This document shows, piece by piece, positions 15,628-44,585 of a stretch of 64,000 bases of DNA. Both the position numbers and the translations under genes were made by a program. The stretch is from Actinomycetota bacterium (GTDB lineage Bacteria > Actinomycetota > UBA4738): contig JBOGVA010000074.1 in NCBI GenBank assembly GCA_050692195.1, positions 8,309 to 72,308 on the forward strand, given 5' to 3'. Within the stretch, counting starts at the first letter, position 1; every line of letters starts with the position of its first letter. The notes beneath the pieces are model-generated. The model did no database searches. It had not been told where the DNA came from and was given only the letters and a program-made list of their open reading frames with translations.

Positions 15628-15702
15628 GCGCCCGTAGCTCAGCCCGGATAGAGCATCGGACTTCGGATCCGAGTGTCGGGGGTTCGAATCCCTCCGGGCG
15701 CA
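15628..15702 (+). tRNA. tRNA-Arg (anticodon TCG)
   Basis: Cloverleaf read by eye: acceptor GCGCCCG/CGGGCGC, D-arm GCTC..GAGC, anticodon stem TCGGA/TCCGA with loop CTTCGGA, T-arm GGGGG-TTCGAAT-CCCTC; 75 nt; CCA not encoded. Confidence 0.85.
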
Positions 15703-15765
15703 CACCTCCGGCAACGTCAAAGCTCGCTAGGCCGATCGGGTGACCCCCGATTCTCTGACTCGGCC

Positions 15766-17007
15766 ATGTTGGAATTCCCACCCGATAACGAGAAGGCCAT
15801 GAATTCTCGCCGAGCGGCGTGGATCGACACCTGGTTTGGAGGTGCCTTGGTCCATGGGCGCGGCGGAGCGCCCATCCTGGATGCCCTAGGGATCGCCCTC
15901 ACGATCGCGCTCTGCTGGACGGCCTCGTACACGGTGGGTGGCGCCGGCAAGGTGCCTCCTCACTGGTTCTACGTCCCGATTCTCTTCGCCAGCTCACGCT
16001 TCGGGCATGCTGGGGCACTGCTGTGTGCAGTCGTCTCCGGGATTATTGCTGGTCCATTGCTGCCGCTCGATGTGGGGGCGGGCTCAACGCAGTCGCTACC
16101 GGACTGGCTCGGTCGCTTGGCGTTCTTCGTCGTAATCGGCCAGGTGATGACGTGGGTGATGGCTCAGCGCCAAGGTGCGGAGACTCAACTACACCGAACT
16201 CGCGGGGCTTTGGTCGAGCTGCAGGAACGAATGAGGAGCGAGGAAGAGGAGGCCAGCAGGCGCAAGGTCGTCCACGAGCAGGTGAAGGAAGTGCTCCGCG
16301 GGAATGGCTTAAAAGTGGTGTTCCAGCCACTGGTGGATCTCCGGAACGGCACAGTGGTCGCTGTCGAGGCTCTGTCCAGGTTTGAGTTCGATCCGCGCCG
16401 CCCGCCGAACGAATGGTTCGCGGACGCATGGGCTGTAGGCCTCGGCGAGGCTCTCGAGATCGCTGCCCTCCGGGCGGCGCTCGCAGAGTCGGCCCGTTTG
16501 CCTGCGCGGCTGGCCGTATCGGTGAACCTCGCTCCCAGCGTCGTCAGTTCTCCTCGGTTTGTGGACCTGCTCCCATCCGTGCCGTGCGGCCGGGTAATCG
16601 TCGAGGTGACGGAGCACGCGCGGGTTCTGGACTACGAAGGCTTCCATGAACCACTGAAGGACTTCCGCCAGCGCGGGGGACGACTGGCGATCGACGATGC
16701 CGGCGCAGGGTATGCGAGCCTTCGGCATATCCTCAAGCTGAGTCCCGACATCATCAAGCTCGACATCGAGCTGACGCGCGGCATCGACCGAGATCCGGCG
16801 CGGCGCGCTCTGGCCTCGGCCATGATCGCGTTCGCTGCCGAGCTGGGGATCTGGATCGTCGCCGAAGGCATCGAGACGGAGGCGGAGCTCCGGTGCCTGC
16901 AGGCGCTCGGTGTGCACCTTGGCCAGGGTTACCATCTCGCGCGGCCGACGCCGCTGGATCTGCTCGACCTCTCTCCTCGTGACACGGCCCTGCGCGACAG
17001 CGCCTGA
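15766..17007 (+). CDS. membrane-anchored EAL-domain protein (c-di-GMP phosphodiesterase)
   Basis: N-terminal TM helices, then EAL domain (EALSRF, DDAGAGYASL, KLDIELTRGI, IVAEGIETEAEL, GQGYHLARP); start at MLEFPPDN. Confidence 0.85.
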   Translation: MLEFPPDNEKAMNSRRAAWIDTWFGGALVHGRGGAPILDALGIALTIALCWTASYTVGGAGKVPPHWFYVPILFASSRFGHAGALLCAVVSGIIAGPLLPLDVGAGSTQSLPDWLGRLAFFVVIGQVMTWVMAQRQGAETQLHRTRGALVELQERMRSEEEEASRRKVVHEQVKEVLRGNGLKVVFQPLVDLRNGTVVAVEALSRFEFDPRRPPNEWFADAWAVGLGEALEIAALRAALAESARLPARLAVSVNLAPSVVSSPRFVDLLPSVPCGRVIVEVTEHARVLDYEGFHEPLKDFRQRGGRLAIDDAGAGYASLRHILKLSPDIIKLDIELTRGIDRDPARRALASAMIAFAAELGIWIVAEGIETEAELRCLQALGVHLGQGYHLARPTPLDLLDLSPRDTALRDSA

Positions 17008-22559: not shown

Positions 22560-23672
22560 TCAGAACAGGCCGATCAGGTCGACCTCCTCATACGGAGTCG
22601 TGCACGGGTTGCCGGGCGCCACCCACATCCGGTGGCCCTCGAGGTCGCTGACCATCGAGAACAGGACGGCCGCCGCCTCCTCACCCTCCTCCTCGTCCGG
22701 ATGCAGGCAGATGGCCTGCGGCTCCCCCTGGTGGTCTCGAAGGATGTCCATGACGTCCTCGGGCGCGGCCGGGTCCCGCTCCTCGATGAGCTCCAGGAGG
22801 CGCTCATAGCGGGCGGCGCTGCCCGGAGAAGGCCGAGGCCCCAGTTCGGCCAGCTCGGGGTCGAGGTAATGGTTCGTGTGCGGTCCCGGTCCCTCCAGGA
22901 CGGACTCGCGCTTCCCGGTGGTTTCCACGATGAACGAGTCGCCTCCCGCGAATGCGAACACGTGGCCGTACCCGCCGGCCCGCCCCGGCAGAGCCGCCCG
23001 GCGCACCGCGTCCAGCCGGTCCGAGGCCTCCAGCGCGTGCCGGGAGACCAGGACTCGGGGGACGCCGACGCCGTTGTCGGAAGCGGTCAACGACTGGATG
23101 CCCTGAGCGCCTCCGTGCTCGTTCATGCCGACGGCCCCCAGGCAGCACACCACCGACGGCGAGGCGATCGCCCCGGCCCCGCTCTTCGGCATCTCGATGA
23201 TCACCGCCACGTTGCCCGCGTCGCCGGCCAGCCAATGCTCGTTGTGACCGAGCAGCGTATAGCCCGGCCCCGATACCGTGAAGGTCGAGCAGCGGGTGGG
23301 TCCGCCGGCCTCCGCCTCCGGAGTCGGCATGTGTCCTTCCTTCCGCTGGAGGAAGGGGAGGGTCCCTTCGACCGGCTCGAGGATTGGCTCCAGCTCCTCG
23401 AAGGCATTCACCGCGAACAGCTCCCAGACCGGGGCCATCGCTCCTTCGGACATCCCCTTGATGGCCGCCATGCACTCGGGCAGATGCGACTCGGTTGCGG
23501 CCAGATATGGAGCCAGCAGATCCTGGAGCTCGCGCGAGGCGACCCCACGCCGCTCGAAGTAGCGCTGGTAGAAGGCCAGGGACCCCTCGATGAGGTCTCC
23601 CAGCATGCGGCCGATCTGCCTGCCGCGTGAGGCCGGATCTCCTTCTGCCCGTATCACCCTCAGCTCATGCAT
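22560..23672 (-). CDS. C45-family (acyl-CoA:6-APA acyltransferase-like) Ntn-hydrolase/acyltransferase
   Basis: 370 aa; CSTFTV putative N-terminal nucleophile Cys after a propeptide; overall AAT/C45 architecture. Confidence 0.75.
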   Translation of the reverse strand: MHELRVIRAEGDPASRGRQIGRMLGDLIEGSLAFYQRYFERRGVASRELQDLLAPYLAATESHLPECMAAIKGMSEGAMAPVWELFAVNAFEELEPILEPVEGTLPFLQRKEGHMPTPEAEAGGPTRCSTFTVSGPGYTLLGHNEHWLAGDAGNVAVIIEMPKSGAGAIASPSVVCCLGAVGMNEHGGAQGIQSLTASDNGVGVPRVLVSRHALEASDRLDAVRRAALPGRAGGYGHVFAFAGGDSFIVETTGKRESVLEGPGPHTNHYLDPELAELGPRPSPGSAARYERLLELIEERDPAAPEDVMDILRDHQGEPQAICLHPDEEEGEEAAAVLFSMVSDLEGHRMWVAPGNPCTTPYEEVDLIGLF

Positions 23673-23819
23673 GGCTGTCCCCAGGCCGGCCGGATCGACT
23701 CGATCCCCTTCTCGGCCAGCTTCCCATTGTTGCCCAGGCAGATCTCCAGAGCCAGCAGGAGCTCTGGTAAGGGACAGGACCCCTCTGGGCCGGGCGCGAC
23801 CCGCTACCCTGGAGTGCTC

Positions 23820-25256
23820 ATGAAGGCGCCGCCGATCTCATCCGCGACGACCATCGGAGAGCTCCGCGCCTCCGGCTACGTGGACCGCACGGTGAAGGAG
23901 GAGCTGCGGGAGAACCTCCTGGCGCGGCTGAGCCGACGAGAGGAGCTCTTTCCCTCCATCGTCGGGTTCGATGATTCCGTACTCCCTGCGCTGGAACGCG
24001 GCATCCTGGCCGGCCACGACGTCATCTTGCTGGGCGAGCGGGGGCAGGCCAAGACCCGGCTGATCCGCCATCTCGTCGATCTCCTGGACGAGTCCATCCC
24101 GGTGATCGCCGGCTGCGAGGTGAACGACCATCCCTTCCGGCCGATCTGCGCGCGTTGCCGCGCCAGGGTGGCCGAAGACGAGGACGCGGTTGACGTCGAG
24201 TGGCTCACTCGGGATCGGCGGTATGCCGAGAAGCTGGCTACGCCGGACATCAGCGTGGCCGACATCATCGGTGACGTCGATCCGATCCGGGTGGCCGAAG
24301 GCAGGTACCTGTCGGACGAGATGACCATCCACTACGGCCTCATCCCCCGGACACATCGGGGCATCGTGGCCATCAACGAGATGCCGGACCTGCCGGAGCG
24401 GATCCAGGTGGCGCTGTTCAACATCCTGGAGGAGCGCGACGTCCAGATCCGTGGGTATCAGATCAGGCTCCCCCTCGACCTGCTTCTGGTGGCGACGGCC
24501 AACCCGGAGGATTACACGCACCGAGGGCGGATCGTCTCCCCTTTGAAAGACCGATTCGGGACTCAGGTTCGCACGCACTATCCGGAGACCCTCGGAGACG
24601 AGATCGCCATCATGGAGCAGGAGGCTCACCCGGCAGCCGGGCGGGGCCAGGTGCCCGTCCGCTTTCCGGCATTCATGAAGGAGGTCGTGGCTGCGCTGAC
24701 CGCGGAGCTGCGGCGTTCTCCGCAGATCAACCAGCGCAGCGGCGTGTCCGTGAGGTACTCGATAGGGAACCTCGAGACCCTGTCGGCGGCGGCGCTGCGA
24801 CGCGCCGCGCGGACCGGCGAGGTCGAGGCCGTGCCGCGGCCGGTGGACCTCCCCGCCGCTCTGGCCGGATCCCTTGGCCGCCTGGAGTTCGACACGGTGG
24901 AGGAAGGAAGGGAGGAGGAGATCCTGGCTCGCGCGGTGAAGAGCGCGACGCTGGAGGTCTTCCGCCGTCGCCTGGCCGGGTTCGACTTCGCCCGGCTTCT
25001 CTCGAGGTTCGAAGGAGGGTTTGTCGCGGAGACGTCGGACCTGATGCCGGCGCACGACTTCCTGGCACAATTCGGCGATCTGCCCGGACTTGCGAAGATG
25101 CTCGGTCGGTTGGGGGTGGAGGAGGAAAGTCCGGGGATCGCGGCGTCTGCCCTCGAGCTGGCCCTGGAGGGGTTGCATCTGTCGCGCCGGCTGAACAGGG
25201 ACAGCGCCGGGCCGTCCGGTCCCTTCCGGTACGAGGGACTCGGGCGCGAAAGCTAG
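23820..25256 (+). CDS. ChlI/BchI-like (Mg-chelatase superfamily) AAA+ ATPase with non-canonical Walker A (GERGQAKT)
   Basis: Architecture parallels BchI: degenerate P-loop, Cys-containing insertion (AGCEVNDHPFRPICARCRAR), sensor/arginine-finger block (RGIVAINEMPDL...LLVATANPE...LKDRFG); start at MKAPPISS. Confidence 0.75.
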   Translation: MKAPPISSATTIGELRASGYVDRTVKEELRENLLARLSRREELFPSIVGFDDSVLPALERGILAGHDVILLGERGQAKTRLIRHLVDLLDESIPVIAGCEVNDHPFRPICARCRARVAEDEDAVDVEWLTRDRRYAEKLATPDISVADIIGDVDPIRVAEGRYLSDEMTIHYGLIPRTHRGIVAINEMPDLPERIQVALFNILEERDVQIRGYQIRLPLDLLLVATANPEDYTHRGRIVSPLKDRFGTQVRTHYPETLGDEIAIMEQEAHPAAGRGQVPVRFPAFMKEVVAALTAELRRSPQINQRSGVSVRYSIGNLETLSAAALRRAARTGEVEAVPRPVDLPAALAGSLGRLEFDTVEEGREEEILARAVKSATLEVFRRRLAGFDFARLLSRFEGGFVAETSDLMPAHDFLAQFGDLPGLAKMLGRLGVEEESPGIAASALELALEGLHLSRRLNRDSAGPSGPFRYEGLGRES

Positions 25257-25269
25257 TCTCTCGTCCGAC

Positions 25270-25641
25270 GTGAACACCATCCATGCCGCCGTCGGCTTCG
25301 CCATCGTGGGCGGTTGGTTCGTCTTCTTCGTGTGGGGGCTCATCGGCTGGCTGGCCAAGCGGGATCCCGGGGCGTGGTATTGGCGCTTCCTAGCCTTCCT
25401 CCAGCTGCTGTTAGCGCTTCAGCTCGCCGCGGGGGTGGTGCTTTTGGCTGCCGGTCGCACCCAGTCCCTTCTTCACTACGCCTATGGTCTGCTGTTCCCC
25501 GTCATCGCCGTAGTCGTGGCCCATGTGCTGGCTCGAGGGATGGAGCAGGGTCGCGACGCGTTGCTCGTGTTCGTGATCGGGTCGTTCGTCGTCTTCGGCC
25601 TCACCTTGCGGGCTCTGGCCACCGGCCTCGGTCTGGGCTGA
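25270..25641 (+). CDS. small integral membrane protein (4 TM), unknown
   Basis: 123 aa; strongly hydrophobic; starts 14 nt after the AAA+ gene stop. Confidence 0.55.
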   Translation: MNTIHAAVGFAIVGGWFVFFVWGLIGWLAKRDPGAWYWRFLAFLQLLLALQLAAGVVLLAAGRTQSLLHYAYGLLFPVIAVVVAHVLARGMEQGRDALLVFVIGSFVVFGLTLRALATGLGLG

Positions 25642-25649
25642 GGCCGCGC

Positions 25650-28600
25650 TCAGCATCCCTCTCGAATCGATCCGGGCTCCACCACCAGGTCGGCAAACGA
25701 GCTGGAGGTCTTGCCGAACTCCCACCATCCCTTCACCCAGGGCTTGACGAAGGCCATGCTCCGTCCGTAGATGAGCGGGATGAGGGCCACGCGGTCAGCC
25801 ACCGCCAGGCGATCGGCTTCGTGGAACAGTTCCAGCCGGCCCCGGTCTTGTCGCTCCTGGCGGGCCCGCTCGATCAGCTCGTCGAACGGCGGGTACGCAA
25901 AGCCTCCCTCGTTCGTCTTGCTGTCGGAGTGAAGCAGGAGGCGGAGGTAGTACTCGGGGTCGGGATAGCCGGGGAGCCATCCCGCCATCACGATGGGCGC
26001 AAGGTCGAACCGTTCGTGAAGGGTCGCCTGCGCCCACGTCCACCAGCGGGTCTCAACTCTCAAGTCCAACACGCGCTCCCAGGACGCAGCGACGGCTGCG
26101 ATCATCGGGCCCATCTCGTCGAGGGCCGCCACTGCGATCTCACCGCCCACGCCGGAGCGGGTCAGGTGCTCTCGCGCTCGCTCAGGATCGAAGCGAGGGG
26201 CGATATCGGGAGTGTGCCCCTGCAGCGCAGGCGGCACGATTCCTCCGGTTGCGACCACCAGGTTCGCCGGGCAGGCCTCGCGGACGGAGTCCCGGTCGAT
26301 CGCATGTGCCAGTGCCCGCCGGAACTCGACGTTCCCGGCCAGGAGGTGGTCGTGATCGAAAGCGAGGTATGCCGTCCAAGCTGCGGGCCCGAGTTTCACA
26401 TGCTCAGGGAGAGAGGCGGTGACATCGGCGCGCAAGGGCGTGTAGCGGACGGTCACGACGTCGAAGGTTCCCTGTTCGAACGGTTCGAGGGCATCCTGCA
26501 ACGCTGAACGGACGAACTCCACCCTGTCCACGTTTCCGGGGCGCACTCCCGTGTACGAGTCCTGGCGGACCAGGACCAGCCGATCCGCGGTGCGTTCGGC
26601 CTGACGGAATGGTCCGCTCACAACCTGCATGTGGGGCTCTATCCACGCGTCTCCGTCACGCTCGATCGCGTGCTGGGGCTGAGGGCCGCCGTCCGGGCGG
26701 TTCATCACGCTCATGAAATACGGAGCCGGGGCCACCAGGCGGAACTCCACGGTTCGGTCGTCCAGGGCTCGCACCCCGATCCGATCCGCGTCGCGGTTCC
26801 GACCAAGGTAATAGTCCTGTCCGTTCTCGAGGACGAAGTAGATGGCCACCGATGAGCCTGGGCTCTCGGGGTCGAGCACTCGCTTGATCCCGAACTCGAC
26901 GTCCCTCGCGGTGAGGGGCTGTCCGTCGGACCACCGAAGCCCTTCACGGAGGTGGAACACGTACCGCAGCCCGTCGTCGGAGATCTCCCACCGCTCGGCC
27001 AGGGACGGGACGATCGTCCGCTCGGGCCACTGCTCGACGAGCCGGTCGAACACCTGCATGCAGAGCTGGATGTTCGGCCAGGCGATGGCCGACTTGGGGT
27101 CCGGGTCGTTGGGCAGGAAGCTCGTAGCCACCCGGAGCGCGGCGGCGGGAGGCTCGGGCCAAGCAGCCGGCGGGATCCATTGCTCGAACGCGCGTTGGTA
27201 GGTCGCGTTCGCCTCCCCGAAGCGCAGGGACGTGTGCAGGGCCAGGGCCAACTTGAACAGCACCAGGGCGATGGCCTGGCGTTCACCCCGCCGCTCCAGC
27301 AGGGGGAGCAGTGCCTGGTAATGCCCGATGGCCTCGTCCAGGGCGTACTCCTGCCTGGCCTTGTCTCCAGCCCGCGTCAGGTAAGCGATGGCCTTGTCCT
27401 CGTCTTCCGCCGAGAGCCAGTGGTGCGCAAGGAGGCCGTACACCTCCTCCTCGCTGCCTGCGTAGCGGCTCTCCAGCCACTCCGCAGCCTTACGGTGGAG
27501 GCGAGTCCGCTTGTCGGTGAGGATCGTCCGGTAGGCGGCTTCCTGGATCAGCACGTGCTTGAAGCGGTATTCCGGCTGGGGCCACCGGCGGGCCTCCCGG
27601 ACCAGGTCGAGGCGCTGCAGCTCGTTGAGCGCGTCCCGCAGCCTGCCGTCCCCGTCGCTCACCCCTTCGAGCAGCGGGAGCCCGAAACGCCGCCCCAGTA
27701 CCGAGGCCGCGGTGAGGACGTCGTGGCACTGCGGAGTGAGACGGTCGATCCGGGCAAGGATCACCTTCTCCACGGTCTGGGGGAGGTCGATCGGAACCTC
27801 GTGGTCGAATCGCCAGTCACCGCCGTCCCTTACCAGGGCTCCGGCGTCCGCGAGCATGCCGACGAGCTCCTCGAGGTAGAACGGGTTTCCCTCAGCGTCC
27901 TCCAGAATGCGCTTCTCCAGCTCATCGGGAAGGGTTCTCTCTCCGACCAGCGCGTGGAGCAGCTCGCGGTCGGCCTGGCCCGAGAGCGCCTCCAGGGCGA
28001 CGTCCCGGGTACGGTGGGCGAAACGACGAGCGGCGGCCTCCTTGACGCCCCAGAACGGGTGATCGCGCTCGGACCGTCCCACGATGACCAGCAGCACGGC
28101 CGCCTCCTCGGTGAGAGGCAGGAGCCGCTCCGTGAGCTGCACGGATGTGGGATCGGCCCAGTGGAGGTCATCGATCGCAATCACTACCGGCCGGTCCATG
28201 GCCAGCCGTTCGAAAAGGCTCCGCACGACCTCGAAGGTCCGATATTGGAGCGCCTCGGGAGAGAGCTCGGCGAGCCGGCTCGAGGCATCGAGCTCGAGGG
28301 ACGATCCCAGCATGGCCCCGAGGTAGGGGTAGATCTCGAGGGCTCGCTCTTCGAACAAGCGCTCGAGGTTTCGCCGAAGAGTGACTCGCACTCGCAGCTC
28401 CGGCTCGTCCACGCCCGCTCCCAGCCAGTCTCGGAGAAGGTCGCGAAACGGCCAGTAGGGAAGCGATTCGCCGTAGGAGACGCACCGTCCCTCTGCCCAC
28501 AGCGGCTCGCGCTCGGAGGCGGAGCGACCGAGAGAGTCTCTAAGCTCGATCAGGAGTCGGGTCTTGCCGATCCCCGCCTCGCCGGTGACGAACAGGATCC

Positions 28601-29315
28601 CACCGGAACCGCCGAGTACCTCCTCCAGCGCCTCCTGGCCCATGGAAAGCTCTCGGTCTCTGCCGATGAGAGGGGCGTGGAGGCTTGCCGGGCCCTTGAG
28701 CCTGGCGGATACGAGTACTGCCCGAGCGACGGGGTACGCCAAGACCGGATCGGCCTTGCCCTTGACGGAGAGCTCGCGGAGCGATTCCCACTCGAACAGC
28801 GAGGCCACCAGGCGATGCGTGTCGGTGCCGACGAGCACGGTGCCCGGCAGGGCCGCCGCCTGGAGCCGGGCTGCTGTGTTGACGGTGTCCCCGAAGGCTC
28901 CGTACTCGATCCGCTGCCCGGTGCCGACCGGGCCGAGCACCACCGGGCCCGTATTCACGCCGACTCGGACCCCGAACCCCTCGATTCGCCAAGCTCGGGC
29001 CACGTCTTCTCCGTACGCCTCGAGCTCCTGGATGATCTTGAGCGCCGCCCTGACGGCACGTTCGGGGTCGTCCTCATGGGTCGCTGGAGCTCCGAAGAGA
29101 GCCAGCACGCCATCCCCGGCCAGGTCCTTGACCGTGCCTCCGAACTCCTCGACTGCCCGGACCATGCGGGCCACGGCCTCGCCCACGATCAGCTTGACCT
29201 CCTCTGGGTCGAGGCGTTCGGCGAGTGCGGTAGAGGCAACCAGATCGGCGAATACGGCCGTGACGACCTTGCGCTCTTCTCGCATACCGACGGGTGGAGA
29301 AGATTCTTCCGGCAT
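25650..29315 (-). CDS. multidomain signalling protein: class III adenylate/guanylate cyclase + STAND/AAA NTPase + TPR-like helical region + C-terminal SBP_bac_5 (oligopeptide-binding-protein-like) domain
   Basis: 1221 aa; N-terminal cyclase motifs (VTAVFADLVAST, DLAGDGVLALFG, GDTVNTAARL), P-loop GEAGIGKTRL, long helical repeats, then about 500 aa with solute-binding family 5 signatures; no signal peptide or HTH. Confidence 0.85.
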   Translation of the reverse strand: MPEESSPPVGMREERKVVTAVFADLVASTALAERLDPEEVKLIVGEAVARMVRAVEEFGGTVKDLAGDGVLALFGAPATHEDDPERAVRAALKIIQELEAYGEDVARAWRIEGFGVRVGVNTGPVVLGPVGTGQRIEYGAFGDTVNTAARLQAAALPGTVLVGTDTHRLVASLFEWESLRELSVKGKADPVLAYPVARAVLVSARLKGPASLHAPLIGRDRELSMGQEALEEVLGGSGGILFVTGEAGIGKTRLLIELRDSLGRSASEREPLWAEGRCVSYGESLPYWPFRDLLRDWLGAGVDEPELRVRVTLRRNLERLFEERALEIYPYLGAMLGSSLELDASSRLAELSPEALQYRTFEVVRSLFERLAMDRPVVIAIDDLHWADPTSVQLTERLLPLTEEAAVLLVIVGRSERDHPFWGVKEAAARRFAHRTRDVALEALSGQADRELLHALVGERTLPDELEKRILEDAEGNPFYLEELVGMLADAGALVRDGGDWRFDHEVPIDLPQTVEKVILARIDRLTPQCHDVLTAASVLGRRFGLPLLEGVSDGDGRLRDALNELQRLDLVREARRWPQPEYRFKHVLIQEAAYRTILTDKRTRLHRKAAEWLESRYAGSEEEVYGLLAHHWLSAEDEDKAIAYLTRAGDKARQEYALDEAIGHYQALLPLLERRGERQAIALVLFKLALALHTSLRFGEANATYQRAFEQWIPPAAWPEPPAAALRVATSFLPNDPDPKSAIAWPNIQLCMQVFDRLVEQWPERTIVPSLAERWEISDDGLRYVFHLREGLRWSDGQPLTARDVEFGIKRVLDPESPGSSVAIYFVLENGQDYYLGRNRDADRIGVRALDDRTVEFRLVAPAPYFMSVMNRPDGGPQPQHAIERDGDAWIEPHMQVVSGPFRQAERTADRLVLVRQDSYTGVRPGNVDRVEFVRSALQDALEPFEQGTFDVVTVRYTPLRADVTASLPEHVKLGPAAWTAYLAFDHDHLLAGNVEFRRALAHAIDRDSVREACPANLVVATGGIVPPALQGHTPDIAPRFDPERAREHLTRSGVGGEIAVAALDEMGPMIAAVAASWERVLDLRVETRWWTWAQATLHERFDLAPIVMAGWLPGYPDPEYYLRLLLHSDSKTNEGGFAYPPFDELIERARQERQDRGRLELFHEADRLAVADRVALIPLIYGRSMAFVKPWVKGWWEFGKTSSSFADLVVEPGSIREGC

Positions 29316-29371: not shown

Positions 29372-31300
29372 GTGCGGATCCGCTATGCGCAGTGGGACGG
29401 GACACAGGACCCGCTCGGCCCGGACCTGTCGACGGGCGACCTCATGGAGGCGATGTCGAACGACCTGCTCTCCGGGCGAGGCGCCGATCGGGCCCTGTCC
29501 CGGCTGATCAGACGCGGGATGCGGGGGCGCTTCACCGGGCTGGACGCGCTACGGGCCCGCCTGCAACAAGCGCGCCGCCGGGAGCAGGATCGACTGAACT
29601 TGCAGGGGCCCCTCCAGCAGATCCAGGCGCGCCTGGAAGAGATCCTCGAGGCCGAGCGCCGCAGGCTCTCCCTCAGTCCGGAGGACGACGCCCGTCTGCG
29701 CGAGCAGTTCCTGGAGTCGCTTCCCCCGGACGCCGCCGGGGCCATCAAGGAGCTCAGGGAGTACCGCTTCGTCGACCCCGAGGCGCAGCGGAAGTTCGAC
29801 GAGCTCATGGATTGGCTCGAACAGCAGGTCCTCGGCTCCTACTTCAGAAAGATGGCCCAAGGCATGAAGAGCTTGTCGCCCGAACAGCTGCAATCGTTCA
29901 AGGACATGCTCGCCGACCTGAACTCGATGATCGAGGCGCGGGACCGGGGGGAGGCCGTCGATTTCGAAGGCTTCATGAGGAGACACGGGGACCTCTTCCC
30001 CGACCAGCCGAAGACGATGGACGAGCTGCTCGAGAGCATGGCCCGGCGAATGGCCGCGATGTCACGCCTGATGGCGTCCCTCTCGCCCGAACAACGGGCC
30101 GAGCTCGAGGCACTGGCCCGTGAGGTGCTGGAAGACCTCGACCTCGCGTTCGAGCTGGACCGCCTGGCCCGTTCCCTGTCGGAGCTCTACCCCCGCATGC
30201 CCTGGGACGATCCCGCCCTCATGGGGGGAGACCAGTCGCTCCCCATGCAGGCCACCGTGGACGCCCTGGAGCGCCTGTCGGACTACGAAGAGCTGGATCG
30301 GTCGATGCGCGGGGACTACGCGGGCGCGGCGCTGGAGGACGTCGACGAGGACCGGCTGCGCCGCACACTGGGAGAGGCCGCCGTCCGGGACATCCGGCGG
30401 CTGAAGGATGTGGAACGCGCCCTCGAACGCGTCGGCCTGGTGACGCGATCGGGTGGCCGGCTGCGTGTTACCCCGCGTGGCGCCCGGAGGTTGGGAGAGA
30501 GAGCCCTGGTCCGGCTCTTCGAGCAGCTTCGGCAGGACCGGGAGGGCGCGCACGACGCTCGGAAGGCCGGCGGCGTTGCCGAGCCCACCGGAGGGACCCG
30601 GCCCTGGAGGTTCGGTGACAGCGCCCAGATCGCGGTTCAGAAGACGGTGTTCAACGCGGTCCTCAGGGGAGGACCATCGGGCCGTCCTCGGCTGCGGCCG
30701 GAAGACTTCGAGTTGGTGGAGGGGGAGAAGCGCACCGAGGCGGCGACCGCGCTGCTGCTCGACCTCTCGTTCTCCATGCCGCTCCGCGGTCACTGGGTGC
30801 CGGCGAAGAAGATGGCCCTCGCTCTGCACGCCCTCATCGAGGGCCGCTATCCGAACGACCGTCTGTACCTGATCGGCTTCTCCGACTACGCGCGTCAGAT
30901 ACGGCCCGAGGACCTGGCCGGCACGGGGTGGGAGCGGGTGTACGGGACCAACATGCAGCACGCGTTCAACCTGGCGGGCCGGCTGTTGGCGAATCATCCT
31001 CGCGCCAGCAGGCAGGTGATCATGGTCACCGACGGCGAGCCGACCGCTCACCTCGAAGAGGGCGAGGCCTTCTTCTCGTGGCCTCCGGTGCCGGAGACGA
31101 TCCGCAGGACGCTGTCCGAGGCGATGCGCCTGGCCAAGACGGGCGTGACGATCAATGTGTTCATGCTGGAAGACACGGCCAGCTTGGCGCGGTTCATGCA
31201 GCGACTGGCCCGTCTGACCAGAGGACGCGTGTTCCAGACCGCCGGCGAGGGACTGGGAGAGTTCGTGATCCGCGACTACGTCGCCCGTCGTGGCAGCTGA
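29372..31300 (+). CDS. von Willebrand factor A (VWA) domain protein with long N-terminal coiled-coil region
   Basis: 642 aa; C-terminal VWA fold (LLLDLSFSM MIDAS-like start, VIMVTDGEPT, VTINVFML); N-terminal 400 aa charged, helical. Confidence 0.8.
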   Translation: MRIRYAQWDGTQDPLGPDLSTGDLMEAMSNDLLSGRGADRALSRLIRRGMRGRFTGLDALRARLQQARRREQDRLNLQGPLQQIQARLEEILEAERRRLSLSPEDDARLREQFLESLPPDAAGAIKELREYRFVDPEAQRKFDELMDWLEQQVLGSYFRKMAQGMKSLSPEQLQSFKDMLADLNSMIEARDRGEAVDFEGFMRRHGDLFPDQPKTMDELLESMARRMAAMSRLMASLSPEQRAELEALAREVLEDLDLAFELDRLARSLSELYPRMPWDDPALMGGDQSLPMQATVDALERLSDYEELDRSMRGDYAGAALEDVDEDRLRRTLGEAAVRDIRRLKDVERALERVGLVTRSGGRLRVTPRGARRLGERALVRLFEQLRQDREGAHDARKAGGVAEPTGGTRPWRFGDSAQIAVQKTVFNAVLRGGPSGRPRLRPEDFELVEGEKRTEAATALLLDLSFSMPLRGHWVPAKKMALALHALIEGRYPNDRLYLIGFSDYARQIRPEDLAGTGWERVYGTNMQHAFNLAGRLLANHPRASRQVIMVTDGEPTAHLEEGEAFFSWPPVPETIRRTLSEAMRLAKTGVTINVFMLEDTASLARFMQRLARLTRGRVFQTAGEGLGEFVIRDYVARRGS

Positions 31301-31302
31301 CC

Positions 31303-32871
31303 CTAGCCCTGCACTCGGTCCGTGACCCGGATGAAGCTATAGAGGTGCTTGAGGTCGGGAAAGATGTGGTTGTCGTCCGGGAGGAGCTCCAGGCCGGCGT
31401 CGAAGTACAGGTTGAACAGCAGCCGGAACGTGTTGACCGGAGTGATCGACGGATAAAGGCCGGGCTTCTCGACGCCCGGAAGATGAAAAGCGTTCAGGAT
31501 GCTGAACTTCTGCTTGATCTGGTCAGGGCGAGTTTGCCAATCCTCCGAGAAGGGACCTTCATCGGCTTGGATGATGATCACCGGGCGCGATTCCTCGGGA
31601 CCTTCCAGAAGCCGATCCACGGCCTCCAGGACTTTCTGGTTCGTGAACATGAGCTGCTCGGTGTAGTTCTGCTCCAACGTCCTGGACTCCTGAGCCTTGC
31701 GCGAGATGAATCCGCCGTTGCGGTCGAATAGATACGGCTCGTGGGGCAGCAGGATGTGGGCGAAAACGAACGTCGGGCCGCCCAACTCTCGGGTCTCCGC
31801 GAGCTTCTCGAACTGGAAGAGCGGGCGTAGGTACTCCCGATGTCGGTGGTCCAGCCTGTCGATGGCGCCCCCGAACGCCGGGAGGATCGTGGATTCGAGC
31901 ACGGCGGACGAGAATTCGCTCAAATCCCCCTTCAGCCGCACGTTCAGGTCCGCCTGGGGGTTGGTGGCGGTGGGCTGCCACCTCGACCCGATGTGCACGT
32001 ACCGATATCCCCTCGACTTGAGGAAGCTCCCGACCTCGTGGTTCTGCAGCAGCTCGTAGATGGGGCCCCAGTTGTCCGGGGTGCCTCCTCCGTCCAGGCC
32101 GTTGAGAAACTCGAGGTTGAGCGAGGAGGCCAGGGAGTGGGCCGTCTTCGGATAGTTCGCCGTGCTGTCGGAGGCCACGTAGAACCCCCGGTCCTCCAGT
32201 GAGTCCAGGAAGGGCCGGTTGTCGAAGCCGAACTGACCTCGCAAGGCGGGCTCTCCACCGTAGCGGTCCAGGATGATGTAGTAGATGTCTGGCTTGCCCG
32301 CCGTGTCGGGCGACGCCGAGACGCCGAGGTTCCTCACTTCTTGGGCCAAGGTGGGCGACACGTCACCCCCCGAACGCAGCTCGTACCAGCCGATCGTCGC
32401 CAGGTTGCTGAGGACCAGCACGGCCGCAGCGATGTTGAGCCCCTTGGTGAGGAGCGCGGTGCGTCTTCCGGCTCGGACCGCCGCGATGACGCCCAGGACG
32501 GCCAGGGCTCCCCACATCGGTAGCAGGTAGAGATGGCGACCAAGCTCCACCCCTCCGATGGCCCAGCCTTCGATCCGAAGGAAGATCTGCCCGTACGAGA
32601 AGAACAGGAGCACAAGGACCGTCGCCACCAATCCAGCCCTCAGCCCATCCCCCCGTAGCGCAAGCCAGGCGACTAGCATCGCCAGGCCCGCGCCTGCCAT
32701 GAGCCCGATCAGCCAGGGCAAGACGTCGGTGAGAGGCACCGCGTATTCGACGTTGGAGGCGTAGACATAGAGCACGGGGAAGGCCGCCAAGAGGAAGGGA
32801 TGAATCACCGGCGGTCGCTTCTCTCGGTGCCCGCGCTGGGGCTGGCCTTCCGCGCTTGACTCAGTGTCCAT
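31303..32871 (-). CDS. membrane-anchored sulfatase/LTA-synthase-like (alkaline phosphatase superfamily) protein
   Basis: 522 aa; 5 N-terminal TM helices then sulfatase-like domain (DIYYIILD..., IIIQADEGP). Confidence 0.8.
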   Translation of the reverse strand: MDTESSAEGQPQRGHREKRPPVIHPFLLAAFPVLYVYASNVEYAVPLTDVLPWLIGLMAGAGLAMLVAWLALRGDGLRAGLVATVLVLLFFSYGQIFLRIEGWAIGGVELGRHLYLLPMWGALAVLGVIAAVRAGRRTALLTKGLNIAAAVLVLSNLATIGWYELRSGGDVSPTLAQEVRNLGVSASPDTAGKPDIYYIILDRYGGEPALRGQFGFDNRPFLDSLEDRGFYVASDSTANYPKTAHSLASSLNLEFLNGLDGGGTPDNWGPIYELLQNHEVGSFLKSRGYRYVHIGSRWQPTATNPQADLNVRLKGDLSEFSSAVLESTILPAFGGAIDRLDHRHREYLRPLFQFEKLAETRELGGPTFVFAHILLPHEPYLFDRNGGFISRKAQESRTLEQNYTEQLMFTNQKVLEAVDRLLEGPEESRPVIIIQADEGPFSEDWQTRPDQIKQKFSILNAFHLPGVEKPGLYPSITPVNTFRLLFNLYFDAGLELLPDDNHIFPDLKHLYSFIRVTDRVQG

Positions 32872-34141
32872 CGGACCGTCGGCCTCGCATCAGATACAGG
32901 ACCCGCTGGGAGCCTCTGATCGGCTCACGCCGTTCGATCGCGAACTCGGCCTCGAACGCCTTCTCGAAGCCTTCCTGAGTGTAGTCGGGAAAGACGTCCT
33001 CTCTGGTGGCCAAGAGGATCTGGGCCATGGGATCACTCTTCGGGACGAACTCCACGGCCAACCATGTACACATGCCCCTCAGGAAGCCCGCCAGTCGATC
33101 CAGCGGGACGTTGTTCCCGATCACCAGATGATGGATCAGCGCAAGCGCCAGCGCCATGCCGGCGGGCTTCCGCTCGAGCAGCGAGAGGCGCTCCCGGTTC
33201 TCCCATCCGATGCTGGGGCTGGGATTGGTGAGGTCCATGATCAGGGGAAGGACGCCCATCTCGGACTCCGTTACCACCCTCCGGTAGCTCACCTCCACCG
33301 CGGCCGGGTCCATGTCGAACGAGATCGTGGGGATGCCCTTGTCCGACGCCACGCGGCTGAACAGGCCCGTGTTCGCCCCGAGATCCCATACGTGCCTCGG
33401 GTCTGCCACCTGGATGAACGCGGCGACCAGGCTCATCTTGTGGTCCAGAGCCTCGGGAGTGTAGCTCAGGGCCTCCGCGTAGTAGCCGGACCACGCAGAC
33501 GGGCCGGGCTGCCAGCTGAGCTTCCGCACTGCCGCAGTGAGGCTGTCGATCAGCCCCCGGAAGGCGCGGAGGGTGAAGGGTCGATTCGTCGTTCGGCCCG
33601 TCGCGGGGGCTCGCGCCTGCCGGCGCTGGCTCCGAGCGTGGAGAAAGATGTGCAAGAGAAGAGGGAAGCGGAAGCGCGCGCGCATGGGGAGGAGGGTCGC
33701 GGCCAGGTCCATGGGGATGCCATCGATATGGATGCGGGAGAGCTGGCCCAGCCGGGCATCCCTGTAGCTGATGAGGGCCAGGGGCGCAAGGAAGTGCTGG
33801 CAGAACTGGCGATAGGCGACCCAGGGAGCACCTTCCCGTAGCTTCTCGAACGAGAGCGTGTCGATCAGCACGGGCCGTCCTCGATGGAACTGGATGTTGT
33901 AGGCGCTGGCGTCGCGAAGAGACATGTCATGGTCCATCGCCGTTCGCTGGATCGCGAGCGTCGTCAGGGCGGCGTCCTTCAGCTGGCTGAAGCACCACTC
34001 ATACGGGTAGGAGATGAACTCGACGTGCTCGGGTCGGATCACCCTGTAGGCGCCGTCGGCGACCGCGTAGCCCGCGTCGACCTCGTCGTGGGGAATCATC
34101 AACCCGGCCTCGACCAGGGTCGCATACAGGCCCGATCGCAT
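32861..34141 (-). CDS. class I SAM-dependent methyltransferase with N-terminal accessory domain
   Basis: 426 aa; motif I VWDLGANTGLFS in the C-terminal half; 11-nt overlap with the downstream sulfatase gene. Confidence 0.7.
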   Translation of the reverse strand: MRSGLYATLVEAGLMIPHDEVDAGYAVADGAYRVIRPEHVEFISYPYEWCFSQLKDAALTTLAIQRTAMDHDMSLRDASAYNIQFHRGRPVLIDTLSFEKLREGAPWVAYRQFCQHFLAPLALISYRDARLGQLSRIHIDGIPMDLAATLLPMRARFRFPLLLHIFLHARSQRRQARAPATGRTTNRPFTLRAFRGLIDSLTAAVRKLSWQPGPSAWSGYYAEALSYTPEALDHKMSLVAAFIQVADPRHVWDLGANTGLFSRVASDKGIPTISFDMDPAAVEVSYRRVVTESEMGVLPLIMDLTNPSPSIGWENRERLSLLERKPAGMALALALIHHLVIGNNVPLDRLAGFLRGMCTWLAVEFVPKSDPMAQILLATREDVFPDYTQEGFEKAFEAEFAIERREPIRGSQRVLYLMRGRRSDGH

Positions 34142-40124: not shown

Positions 40125-41489
40125 TCAAGCCGAGCTAGAGCCGCTCCGAGGAGGCCACTGGTAGCCCTGCCACGGGTCGTAGTCCACCTCGAGCGCCTCC
40201 TGATGAGGGCGCTCGGCCTCAGGCACGTTCCTCAGATTCAGCCGGATTCGCGTCCAGGTGGTGCTTCGCCCCCGCATCGAGTCCACCAGCAGATCGGCAG
40301 GCTCCAGGTACGACCACACCCCGGGATGCCGCGCCTTCCAACGCTCCAGTCCCTCCATCGCCTCCTCCTCGGTGGCCGCCCGAGCGATCTCGATCAGGGG
40401 CATGGTCGTCCGCCGCCGTCCCGTCGGTCCGGCGGCCTTTCCCGGCGCGGGAGGCGGCACCATCCCTTCTCGCACCTGTGTGCCGGTGGCCCTTCGTCGC
40501 TTGGACGGCTGGACCCGGGGCGGCTCGCCCGCCTGCTTGGCGAAATGGGGCGGCCACGGGGCGTCGGCGAAACCGGCGGCTTCGTGCTGGGCCGCCAGCT
40601 CCAGGAGCGGTTCCAGCGAGCCGGCGGCCTCGTCGATCCCCTCCGAAGGGTCGCCGAGTCGGGCAAACCGCTCCGGAACGGTGTCGATCGTGAACGCAGC
40701 AGGGTCGCAATCGGGCGCCTCGTCCCAGCTGATGGGAGTGGACACTCGAGCATCGGGGGTCGGGCGAACCGAATAGGCGGACGCGACCGTCCGATCCTTT
40801 GCGTTCTGGTTGTAGTCGAGGAAGACGCCGTGGCGTTCTTCCTTCCACCACTTGCTGGTGGCAAGCTCCGGCACCCGCCGTTCGACCTCTCGGGCCAGGG
40901 CCAGGGCCGCGCGGCGTACTTCCGTGAAGGACCACCGGCGCTCGATCCGGCAGTAGACGTGGAACCCTCGCGAACCTGACGTCTTGGGCCATCCCACCAA
41001 TCCGAAGTCCTCGATGGCCTCCTTGGTCACCAGGGCGACGTCCCGGATCTGTGCCCATTCCACGCCGGGGAGAGGGTCGAGGTCGACCCTGAGCTCGTTG
41101 GGGTGGTCCAGGTCGTCCGCACGGACCGGGTGCGGATTGAGGTCGATGCACCCGAGGTTGACCACCCAGGCAAGCTGCGCGGCATCCCGGACCACGATCT
41201 CGTGGGCCGTCCGGCCGGATGGGAAGCTCAGCTCGACCATCTCGACCCAGTCGGGCCGCGACTCCGGGGCCCGTTTCTGGAAGAAGAACTCGCCCTCGGC
41301 CCCGTTGACGTACCGCTTCAGGGCCATGGGACGTCCCGCCACCCCGCGAAGAGCGCCGCCGGCCACGGCCAGGTAATAGCGAACGAGGTCCAGCTTGGTG
41401 TGCCCGGTGCGCGGGAAGAAGACCTTGTCCGGATTGGTGACGGTCACGTCACGGCCGTCGACGGGCAGGATCTCCTTTCGGCCCGGCAT
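40125..41489 (-). CDS. stand-alone LigD-type primase-polymerase (NHEJ polymerase domain) with about 110-aa C-terminal extension
   Basis: VDGRDVTVTNPDKVFFP, RVDLDP and KTSGSRGFHVY motifs of the LigD Pol/prim-pol domain; start at MPGRKEIL. Confidence 0.8.
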   Translation of the reverse strand: MPGRKEILPVDGRDVTVTNPDKVFFPRTGHTKLDLVRYYLAVAGGALRGVAGRPMALKRYVNGAEGEFFFQKRAPESRPDWVEMVELSFPSGRTAHEIVVRDAAQLAWVVNLGCIDLNPHPVRADDLDHPNELRVDLDPLPGVEWAQIRDVALVTKEAIEDFGLVGWPKTSGSRGFHVYCRIERRWSFTEVRRAALALAREVERRVPELATSKWWKEERHGVFLDYNQNAKDRTVASAYSVRPTPDARVSTPISWDEAPDCDPAAFTIDTVPERFARLGDPSEGIDEAAGSLEPLLELAAQHEAAGFADAPWPPHFAKQAGEPPRVQPSKRRRATGTQVREGMVPPPAPGKAAGPTGRRRTTMPLIEIARAATEEEAMEGLERWKARHPGVWSYLEPADLLVDSMRGRSTTWTRIRLNLRNVPEAERPHQEALEVDYDPWQGYQWPPRSGSSSA

Positions 41490-41534
41490 GTCCACACGAT
41501 ACGGCGTGCCGACTCGGCCGTAGACTGCCTCTCG

Positions 41535-44500: not shown

Positions 44501-44585
44501 CGACATCTTCACCCCGCTCGGAGCTCGGCCCGCGCTCAAAGAGACCGACGAGCTGCTCGAGCGGGCGGTGGCCCGGACGTCCTGA
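41535..44585 (+). CDS. STAND/AAA NTPase-TPR regulator with only the C-terminal half of a class III cyclase domain (5'-truncated paralog of 25650-29315, no SBP domain)
   Basis: In-frame GDVVNTAARLQ...VLAKGKAEP cyclase C-terminus, then GEPGVGKTRL P-loop, DLHWADLALL and long TPR-like helical region; first ATG only at about 41841. Confidence 0.7.
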   Translation, partial: CLSAVTLGARPEEGEGIVAGDVVNTAARLQQAAPTNGVVVGEVTFRATKDVIEYEETEPVLAKGKAEPIPIWLARAPRTRFGVDVEQADRAPFVGRHDELELMKRTFARTVNESGVQVVTVTGEPGVGKTRLVWELRSFLDNQPGLVYWRQGRCLPYGEGVTFWALGEMVKAQAGILESDDPEQAAQKIEVAARAVATDSSEQEWLEARLSPLVGIGGPDGGRVAERDESFAAWRRFLEAIAALRPLVLVFEDLHWADLALLDFVEHLVDWSTEVPLLVLCTARPELYERYPAWGGGKRNSTTLALPPLAEQDTAHLISVLLSQAVLPAEVHAALLERCGGNPLYAEEFVRMLLDRGILERRGRTVRIAPGSEIPVPETVQALIAARLDTLPPERKSLLQDGSVVGKVFWSGAVAFMGGIDERTARAELHELGRKELLRPARTPSVKDQAEYSFWHILVRDVAYGQIPRASRGRKHRLAAEWLERVAGDRVADLAEFLAFHYERALELARSAGETEEVPALEEGTLRFLVMAGDRAFHLDLGKAYEFYRRALELIPPEHPDRPRVLAEAMDAGGGAGLLSLDEAEPRFLEAIEAFRTRGDLLGAGDAALRLAGWVWVRGETSRAASIAGEAADLLEPHGSTPQLAEAYNELARYATLGGRRDEGLRWTEQALAMARELGIGRVEARALQFRGIIRCERGDVGGLEDLRESLRMCLELGVGVTYETGTAYTNLGSELWMIQGPASALEIYREGVEFATRRRYAAQVAWIRAEMLWALFDLGDWDEVLRVADELLEWDPAGARTQQGVFALSYKARVLVSRGEVSEAIGLCAHLLPRARTIRDPQVLGPALEVAALVELARGDQGGVPAAAALIEELNREQGALLLTHGLTAANAARVLVAAGKPERAKAFLEKAAGGVGRAEHNVLTGRAVLAESLGDLREALELYSDAAAQWARFRIPFEQALALLGVGRCLVSLGRPGEAAEPLREARDIFTPLGARPALKETDELLERAVARTS

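Follow-up and report, generated by a model that had tools for sequence, protein, structure and literature searches.

Gene structure and domain layout

A stretch of 64,000 nucleotides (the window) from an Actinomycetota bacterium (assembly GCA_050692195.1, contig JBOGVA010000074.1, positions 8,309 to 72,308 of the forward strand) carries on its reverse strand a single gene for a protein of 1221 amino acids (aa), hereafter called the window protein. From N- to C-terminus it consists of a class III nucleotidyl cyclase domain (residues 14-189), a STAND NTPase domain of the AAA_16 type (residues 215-410), TPR-like helices and a solute-binding domain of the SBP_bac_5 family (SBP5, residues 735-1221). 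The open reading frame (ORF), taken from an ORF list with its translation, starts with ATG, and its G+C content at third codon positions (GC3) matches that of the other genes of the window, which has 67% GC. The residue at position 11 could be the true start, as judged from the alignment, because conservation within the family first appears at 'MREERK'. Four Pfam matches were obtained (Guanylate_cyc, AAA_16, a weak TPR_12 and SBP_bac_5), and a full-length AlphaFold2 (AF2) model was folded in every part (pLDDT 83.6, pTM 0.76). The coordinates of all features are collected in Table 1.

The four-part layout is that of one genuine protein under selection, and a frameshift, a missed stop or an assembly chimera is excluded, because at least 119 full-length homologues (67-92% identity) with the same layout come from independent assemblies, namely metagenomes and metagenome-assembled genomes (MAGs). 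The protein is under strong purifying selection. The original prediction, which was made from the sequence alone, had proposed a single cytoplasmic protein rather than two genes, with a STAND NTPase and TPR-like helices in the middle and an SBP_bac_5 domain in place of the LuxR helix-turn-helix (HTH) at the C-terminus. These claims were borne out: homologues are collinear across all domain junctions, GC3 is that of coding sequence, AAA_16 scores above its cut-off with intact Walker motifs, the arm is helical in the AF2 model, and the Pfam scan identifies the C-terminal region of about 490 aa as SBP_bac_5. No LuxR/GerE or other HTH was matched in the window protein at E <0.1 in Pfam.

Table 1. 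Positions of the gene, its domains and motifs, and neighbouring genes in the window
Feature	Position	Strand	Basis or remark
Whole coding sequence, 1221 aa	25650..29315	(-)	ORF list and translation; GC3 0.82; 119 full-length homologues
Stop codon of the 1221-aa coding sequence	25650-25652	(-)	
Alternative start Met11 (ATG)	29283-29285	(-)	
Class III nucleotidyl cyclase domain, residues 14-189	28749..29276	(-)	Guanylate_cyc match
Base-specifying position Asp64	29124-29126	(-)	
Base-specifying position Gly139	28899-28901	(-)	
Variable linker between cyclase and NTPase, residues 190-214	28674..28748	(-)	Lowest conservation; low model confidence
STAND nucleotide-binding domain (AAA_16), residues 215-410	28086..28673	(-)	Pfam AAA_16
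Walker A GEAGIGKT, residues 245-252	28560-28583	(-)	
Walker B AIDDLHWAD, residues 380-388	28152-28178	(-)	
Helical arm/winged-helix region and TPR-like superhelix, residues 411-715	27171..28085	(-)	All-helical in AF2; TPR_12
Pro-rich linker between TPR and SBP5, residues 716-734	27114..27170	(-)	Length and sequence vary across the family
Complete cluster-C solute-binding domain (SBP_bac_5, OppA-like), residues 735-1221	25653..27113	(-)	Pfam, OppA alignment
GWLPGY motif, residues 1112-1117	25965-25982	(-)	Gly1116 at the OppA Asp419 position
MoxR-like AAA_5 ATPase gene	23667-25256	(+)	3' side of cyclase gene, convergent
123-aa ORF	25270-25641	(+)	No Pfam match; 3' side of cyclase gene, convergent
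VWA-domain gene	29372-31300	(+)	5' side of cyclase gene, divergent
LigD Prim-Pol gene (polymerase of non-homologous end joining)	40125-~41400	(-)	PF21686, E = 8e-87

Cyclase domain

The Guanylate_cyc profile (PF00211) was matched at 80.9 bits against a cut-off of 21.9 (E = 1e-22), and this score above the curated threshold, together with the cyclase homology fold, places the domain in class III. The metal-binding residues Asp24 (F-A-D) and Asp68 (G-D-G) and the transition-state residues Asn146 and Arg150 (V-N-x-A-A-R) are conserved throughout the family, and the lysines of the K-G-K motif (K185/K187) are present and conserved. The claim that all key cyclase motifs are in place therefore holds for the catalytic residues and fails for the pair that specifies adenine. 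In gap-free alignments, the position of the Lys of the adenylate cyclases CyaB and CyaC is occupied by Asp64, with Lys63 one residue earlier, and the partner position, which is Thr in CyaB/CyaC and Gly in Cya2, is occupied by Gly139; the pair of Lys and Asp/Thr(Ser) specific to adenylate cyclases is absent. Asp64/Gly139 stands in place of the adenine-specifying Lys/Asp pair and resembles the Glu/Gly pair of Cya2, a guanylate cyclase; hence neither cAMP as a product nor the term 'adenylate cyclase' of the original prediction is proven. The product could be cAMP, cGMP or another nucleotide, and no call is made from the sequence; owing to the Asp/Gly pair, the window protein is a candidate for a bacterial guanylate cyclase or for a cyclase with unusual specificity.

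Cya2 was also the best sequence match to the domain in the PDB (2W01, E = 4.5e-26). It is a guanylate cyclase that is converted into an adenylate cyclase by the single change E488K (PMC5995499). In the wider cyclase–STAND–SBP5 group, the base-specifying pair was found as D/G, R/T, Q/N and Q/L; Gln at the Lys position occurs in the relatives L063, L064, P0157 and P0193, two of which (L064 and P0157) also have Asn at the partner position. The linker that follows the cyclase (residues 190-214) has the lowest majority-residue frequency in the protein (0.51), and pLDDT falls below 50 at model residues 190-202.

NTPase domain and helical arm

AAA_16 was matched at residues 215-410 with 98.1 bits against a cut-off of 32.6 (E = 1e-27). 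The Walker A and Walker B motifs are conserved in the family, with conservative substitutions only. Walker A and a Walker B of the form hhhhD[DE] in an AAA_16-type nucleotide-binding oligomerisation domain (NOD), a NOD fold like that of known STAND proteins and the tripartite order of effector, NOD and repeat sensor place the window protein among the STAND NTPases. Residues 411-715 are all-helical in the AF2 model, and TPR_12 was matched weakly at residues 659-711 (E = 0.068); no PDB sequence was matched by residues 201-721 using phmmer.

Solute-binding domain

The SBP_bac_5 profile was matched by residues 767-1134 over profile positions 1-367 of 368, with 208.6 bits against a cut-off of 32.4 (E = 2e-61), and the last 500 aa were aligned with residues 27-498 of the 517 of Salmonella OppA (E = 1e-46). 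In Foldseek comparisons, the model of this domain gave TM-scores of 0.80-0.85 to liganded, closed OppA, DppE and MppA and fitted open structures less well (0.60-0.64). The full-length profile match and the OppA-type fold assign the domain to cluster C of the solute-binding proteins. NCBIfam models for OppA, DppA, SapA and NikA were matched by the C-terminal region, with all NCBIfam scores far below the equivalog cut-offs. The scaffold of the binding strand is kept, with G1112, W1113, Y1117 and W1092 at the positions of OppA G415, W416, Y420 and W397, respectively. No part of the protein is more conserved than the N-terminal end of the domain (residues 732-891), whose majority-residue frequency of 0.89-0.95 is above that of the cyclase domain.

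Homologues and the NOD–TPR–SBP5 cassette

A database search with the 1221-aa protein gave 6540 significant relatives, of which the best 120 were examined. These are 1183-1282 aa long (one is a partial record), are 67-91% identical to the window protein and have the same three Pfam domains. When one genome was scanned for each species, relatives were found to be encoded at no fewer than 560 loci, of which 80 were retained; the SBP5 part was covered at about 60 of the 80, and full-length copies with 63-77% identity occur in about 60 species-level genomes. The carrier genomes are all MAGs, mostly from soil Actinomycetota (Thermoleophilia, Gaiellaceae, Solirubrobacterales), with some from Chloroflexota and Dormibacterota. 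The STAND–SBP5 cyclase family is widespread and uncharacterised. In public records, its members are named 'ABC transporter substrate-binding protein', 'AAA family ATPase' or 'hypothetical protein', and the automatic JGI name is the concatenation 'ABC-type oligopeptide transport system substrate-binding subunit/class 3 adenylate cyclase'. The first of these names, applied to STAND–SBP5 proteins, is a systematic mis-annotation.

A second search was made with the SBP5 domain only against 1.84 billion representatives at 50% identity; it gave 47,134 matches, 1,754 of them at E <1e-30, and the best 150 were examined. Of these, 67 reach a length of 900 aa or more, and the SBP5 domain is C-terminal in nearly all of them. 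The three main N-terminal groups among the long proteins are class III cyclases (26), SARP regulators with Trans_reg_C and BTAD domains (25) and protein kinases (9). A single unbroken phmmer alignment joins residues ~215-1214 of the window protein to proteins of the SARP and kinase types. Compared in this way, NOD, TPR and SBP5 are a conserved sensor cassette with exchangeable output heads, and a cassette that is kept while its output is swapped is what is expected of a signal-input device. The connection of an SBP5 domain to a cyclase, described as unusual in the original prediction, is unusual in relation to characterised proteins; it is not rare, being one branch of a large STAND–SBP5 family. 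Free-standing transporter relatives of the SBP5 domain were sought among the shorter matches and rejected, since the inspected matches of ~500 aa start within the TPR region, have no signal peptides and are N-truncated fragments.

Several relatives have further architectures. P0128 (NCBI MFP3913466.1, from an Actinomycetota MAG, 1452 aa, named 'ABC transporter substrate-binding protein' at NCBI) is a relative with two outputs: it has a SARP region (Trans_reg_C and BTAD, residues 23-237) followed by cyclase, AAA_16 and SBP5 domains, and is aligned to residues 10-1212 of the window protein. Two divergent cyclase–STAND–SBP5 proteins, each 38% identical, are encoded at L063:7728-11315 (+) of a Caldilineales MAG, with an extra N-terminal double zinc ribbon, and at L064:7974-11489 (+), with the canonical Asp in GWHADYPDP. 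Two to four SBP5 domains in tandem occur in some of P0122 (2843 aa), P0141 (2704 aa), P0164 and P0140/P0232. In P0164 (1515 aa), an N-terminal DyP-type peroxidase precedes two SBP5 domains, and P0140/P0232 are about 1200 aa long with unusual SBP5 architectures, P0232 having an N-terminal transmembrane anchor.

Cellular location

No N-terminal signal peptide was found in the 1221-aa protein, and no membrane segment was found by hydropathy, in the family alignment or in the AF2 model. The SBP5 domain begins at residue 735 of a soluble protein and has no export signal of the kind carried by the binding proteins of ABC transporters. Among 187 long homologues that were scanned, the sole clear transmembrane segment was found in a tandem-SBP5 protein without STAND domain, and the STAND-linked homologues checked, all of 900 aa or more, showed no convincing signal peptide or transmembrane segment. 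In sister proteins, the same cassette carries DNA-binding SARP heads, which are necessarily cytoplasmic. The window protein, including its SBP5 domain, is cytoplasmic. The absence of a signal peptide and the cytoplasmic location had both been predicted, and both were upheld by these scans.

Genomic context

AAA_5 and VWA genes are typically adjacent partners. In the window, the cyclase gene interrupts such a pair from the opposite strand; the same interrupted order was found at the locus L001, and the VWA gene is kept at L009. When 10 neighbours in the window were compared by tblastn with the 80 loci, synteny was found only at these two, which belong to close relatives. Clustering of 139 flanking proteins gave no family at more than 5 of 35 loci, and the neighbours across these loci are unrelated housekeeping genes by Pfam (among them those for a lactate-racemase-like protein, acyltransferase, TetR, glucan phosphorylase, G6PD and ribosomal protein S4). 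Conserved operon partners were rejected on these grounds. Genes for a cognate ABC permease or ATPase were found neither in the window nor as conserved neighbours across the 35 loci. Two BPD_transp_1 permease genes immediately precede the L064 gene, and a GH4 glycosidase gene is close by; a link to a peptide ABC importer through these permeases was rejected, as the glycosidase alongside makes a sugar system probable. Because no gene neighbour is conserved across 35 loci, the window protein is read as a self-contained one-component signalling unit. It does not behave as part of a transporter or of a defence island.

The window contains a second STAND gene (41103-44585, (+)), which encodes AAA_16 and a long TPR arm without SBP5 and is 32% identical to the window protein over residues 126-653. 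Of its cyclase, only a C-terminal remnant is present (GDVVNTAARLQ...KGKA), and its real start probably lies after ~41500; the first ~130 codons of the ORF overlap the opposite-strand LigD gene and are probably non-coding. The LigD ORF in the list runs to 42530 (801 aa) and overlaps this paralogue, so that one of the two starts is over-called. Adjacent genes at 31303-32871 (-) and 32861-34141 (-) encode proteins of 522 and 426 aa with good coding statistics and no Pfam or PADLOC match, and both are conserved beside the VWA gene in L001 (42% and 67% identity, respectively). Other signalling genes are those for an EAL-domain c-di-GMP phosphodiesterase (15673-17007, (+)) and a HisKA_3/HATPase_c histidine kinase (4418-6505, (+)). 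No gene for a Crp-like cyclic-nucleotide-binding protein was found among the ~40 window ORFs scanned, several ORFs at ~51.9-64 kb lying outside the scan.

Proposed mechanism and alternative explanations

The preferred reading, to which a probability of roughly 60% is given, is that the window protein is a STAND protein with a MalT-like NOD, a cyclase as its output, and a TPR arm with an OppA-type Venus-flytrap domain as its sensor, in which closure on a ligand would lead to oligomerisation and to the synthesis of a cyclic nucleotide (cNMP). The SBP5 domain is assigned the sensor position because STAND architecture places the C-terminal arm there. The domain content with its intact motifs, the closer fit of the SBP5 model to liganded, closed structures, the high conservation of residues 732-891, the lack of signal peptide and membrane segment, the exchange of output heads on one cassette and the absence of conserved neighbours all speak for this reading. 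Class III cyclases are active only as dimers. According to the model for STAND and NLR proteins, the sensor holds the NOD closed and ADP-bound, and a signal brings about exchange for ATP, oligomerisation and engagement of the N-terminal effector (bioRxiv 10.64898/2026.09.02.748808). If the window protein acts in this way, its sensor arm would at rest keep the NOD closed, ADP-bound and monomeric, and the lone cyclase domains would be without a dimeric active site. A cytoplasmic ligand would then enter the SBP5 cleft, upon which the two lobes would close; this closure would release the NOD for ADP-to-ATP exchange and oligomerisation, and oligomerisation would pair the cyclase domains as catalytic dimers that produce cAMP or cGMP.

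Several observations weigh against this reading. The position of OppA D419 is Gly1116, which is invariant in 119 of 119 family members; that of R413 is hydrophobic across the family; that of H371 is W, F, D or N in the family and Met in the window protein; and that of K307 is Pro in the family. The latter three residues of OppA are taken here to be anchors of the peptide termini. D419 hydrogen-bonds the amine of the residue at the peptide's N-terminus (PMC5736914). The anchoring of the OppA/DppA type, in which an Asp for the N-terminus is combined with basic residues for the carboxylate, is absent. Because the anchor residues are replaced, binding of free termini in the OppA manner is unlikely, and the ligand is probably not a peptide gripped in this way. 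Peptide binding of another kind may still be compatible with the sequence, by analogy with Lactococcus lactis OppA, which binds peptides without a D419-type anchor (PMC5736914). The cleft could also be non-functional or re-purposed, and what keeps residues 732-891 so conserved could be a contact within the protein or with another protein instead of a ligand site. In addition, no genomic link to cNMP receptors or peptide importers was found. The oligopeptide- and nickel-binding signatures noted by the original prediction are a likeness at the level of the fold only: the fold is complete and, in the AF2 model, intact and closest to closed, liganded solute-binding proteins, and the OppA anchors are replaced.

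One rival explanation remains serious. The SBP5 domain may be a degenerate Venus flytrap that serves as a structural, autoinhibitory or protein-docking module and regulates the NOD without sensing a small molecule; it might, for instance, bind a partner protein, in the way of the TPR or WD40 sensors of other STAND proteins. The replacement of all four OppA peptide-terminus anchors and the invariance of Gly1116 are in its favour; the strong conservation of residues 732-891 is as a fixed interface, intramolecular or with another protein, would show, and the pTM of the full-length model suggests defined interdomain packing. This explanation is nevertheless considered unlikely, though well worth weighing, as the fold is retained at full length, with its two lobes and the binding strand's scaffold residues, and the model resembles closed, liganded proteins. 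Moreover, in the more distant STAND–SBP5 clades, of the SARP, kinase and divergent cyclase types, the motif GWxADYPDPDNFLR mostly still has its Asp, which points to ancestral ligand binding; in these alignments, the loss of the D419-type Asp is specific to the clade of the window protein, and the same Asp is missing from some genuine peptide binders, L. lactis OppA among them.

A role in antiviral defence, in which the SBP5/TPR arm of an Avs-like STAND or Pycsar-like protein would recognise a protein or peptide from a phage, with the cyclase then producing a cyclic alarm nucleotide, is improbable. Only PycC models of PADLOC were matched (residues 14-170, <=63 bits), more weakly than the generic Guanylate_cyc profile and by virtue of the common cyclase fold; the NOD, the sensor, the neighbouring genes and the STAND paralogue gave no significant match to Avs or to any other model of PADLOC. 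No adjacent effector and no defence-island context were found: the neighbours are housekeeping genes that differ between loci, and no defence genes were detected around the window copy of a gene carried by ~60 species-level genomes. The SARP and kinase heads of the sister clades are typical of regulators.

It is very improbable that the SBP5 domain is extracytoplasmic and the protein a transmembrane receptor cyclase like the guanylate cyclases of the atrial natriuretic peptide (ANP) receptors, with the helix at residues 681-699 as the membrane anchor. This segment, shortly before the SBP5 domain, is the sole hydrophobic peak of the protein, and its Kyte-Doolittle maximum (1.64) is close to the usual threshold for membrane segments. 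However, it lies within the TPR_12 match, contains the conserved residues Lys688 and His694, forms part of a helical repeat in the AF2 model and has no hydrophobic counterpart in L063, a homologue with 38% identity, so that a membrane anchor was rejected; the STAND-linked homologues and the SARP-headed proteins with the same cassette speak against it as well. Finally, fusion of two genes by a sequencing or assembly error, a missed stop or a frameshift is next to inconceivable, since, although high-GC DNA does yield long spurious ORFs (such as one of 851 aa on the strand opposite the cyclase gene), nothing specific favours it, the same single ORF is present at ~60 genome loci, its codon-position GC is that of real genes and the 119 independent homologues are aligned collinearly through each junction.

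Significance

A broader proposal, which is put forward tentatively and with less confidence than the mechanism of the window protein itself, is that the STAND–SBP5 proteins may together make up an extensive, hitherto unrecognised class of one-component receptors in the cytoplasm of Actinomycetota and Chloroflexota from soil and of their relatives, in which an OppA-derived flytrap senses a peptide-like or other small metabolite inside the cell and one cassette serves, by ATP-dependent oligomerisation, interchangeable cyclase, SARP and Ser/Thr kinase outputs, the clade of the window protein having re-tuned its binding site and perhaps producing cGMP. Candidate ligands would be an imported signalling peptide, a product of cell-wall recycling or a product of proteolysis.

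For the majority of STAND/NLR-like regulators in bacteria, AfsR among them, it is not known what signal activates them (bioRxiv 10.64898/2026.09.02.748808). A sensor arm that ends in a well-understood ligand-binding fold offers a concrete route to such a signal, and since the same cassette drives all three kinds of head (cyclase, SARP and kinase), signalling in hundreds of uncultured Actinomycetota and Chloroflexota from soil could be explained by a single class of ligand. If the SBP5 domain is indeed a sensor, the fusion extends the cluster-C solute-binding proteins from transport to intracellular sensing. To our knowledge, these proteins have been regarded as strictly extracytoplasmic. A review of signalling by solute-binding proteins treats only extracytoplasmic ones (PMC8050422), and full-text searches, in which papers of subscription journals were thinly covered, found no literature on a fusion of SBP_bac_5 with a cyclase, AAA_16, BTAD or STAND domain. 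The components all belong to known families; what appears to be undescribed is the use of a cluster-C SBP5 domain by a STAND protein as its sensor in the cytoplasm.

Comparison with known systems

With OppA, DppA, MppA and DppE, the window domain shares the full-length cluster-C fold and the scaffold residues of the binding strand; it differs in having no signal peptide or lipobox, in being fused to a cytoplasmic protein without linked permease or ATPase genes and, from OppA, in the replacement of all four anchors. In LacI, LysR and AmiC, ligands are sensed in the cytoplasm by folds of periplasmic binding proteins; such a fold also provides the input to the cyclase of the ANP receptors, which appeared among the sequence matches to the window cyclase domain. 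These are type I/II folds of other families, not cluster-C SBP5, and they are not combined with a STAND NTPase.

Cya2 of Synechocystis is similar to the window protein in having an acidic residue and Gly at the base-specifying positions (Glu488/Gly and Asp64/Gly139, respectively). Since Asp is one carbon shorter than Glu, a preference for GTP is not assumable for the window protein. Cya2 is furthermore a membrane protein controlled by an extracellular CHASE2 domain (PMC5995499), in contrast to the soluble window protein.

The order of class III cyclase, AAA_16 NOD and helical repeats is shared with the mycobacterial proteins of the Rv0386 type, which consist of cyclase, AAA_16 STAND, TPR and LuxR HTH domains, and with the TOMM kinase/cyclase fusions of TIGR03903. 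The base-specifying pair is non-canonical in the Rv0386 type as well (Gln/Asn, which we take to be the pair of M. tuberculosis Rv0386), and the difference lies at the C-terminus, where a LuxR/GerE HTH is present there and the 490-aa SBP5 domain here. TIGR03903 was aligned to residues 12-680 (E = 1e-75) with a score of 255 bits, where the cut-off is 705.75; the first aligned profile position is 282, past the kinase part, and with no Pkinase match the window protein falls outside this family.

Effector swapping on STAND scaffolds is well known. The logic of effector, NOD and TPR is also that of AfsR-like proteins (bioRxiv 10.64898/2026.09.02.748808), and SARP-headed relatives have exactly the NOD–TPR–SBP5 cassette of the window protein, whereas the characterised AfsR ends in TPRs only. 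MalT of E. coli, which activates the maltose regulon and is the prototype of the MalT clade of STAND NTPases, is activated by maltotriose plus ATP. It differs from the window protein in its C-terminal LuxR HTH output and helical-repeat sensor, compared with the N-terminal cyclase and SBP5-ended arm here, and the two sequences are only 14% identical; it is nonetheless the closest functional precedent for the switch by ligand and ATP that is proposed for the window protein.

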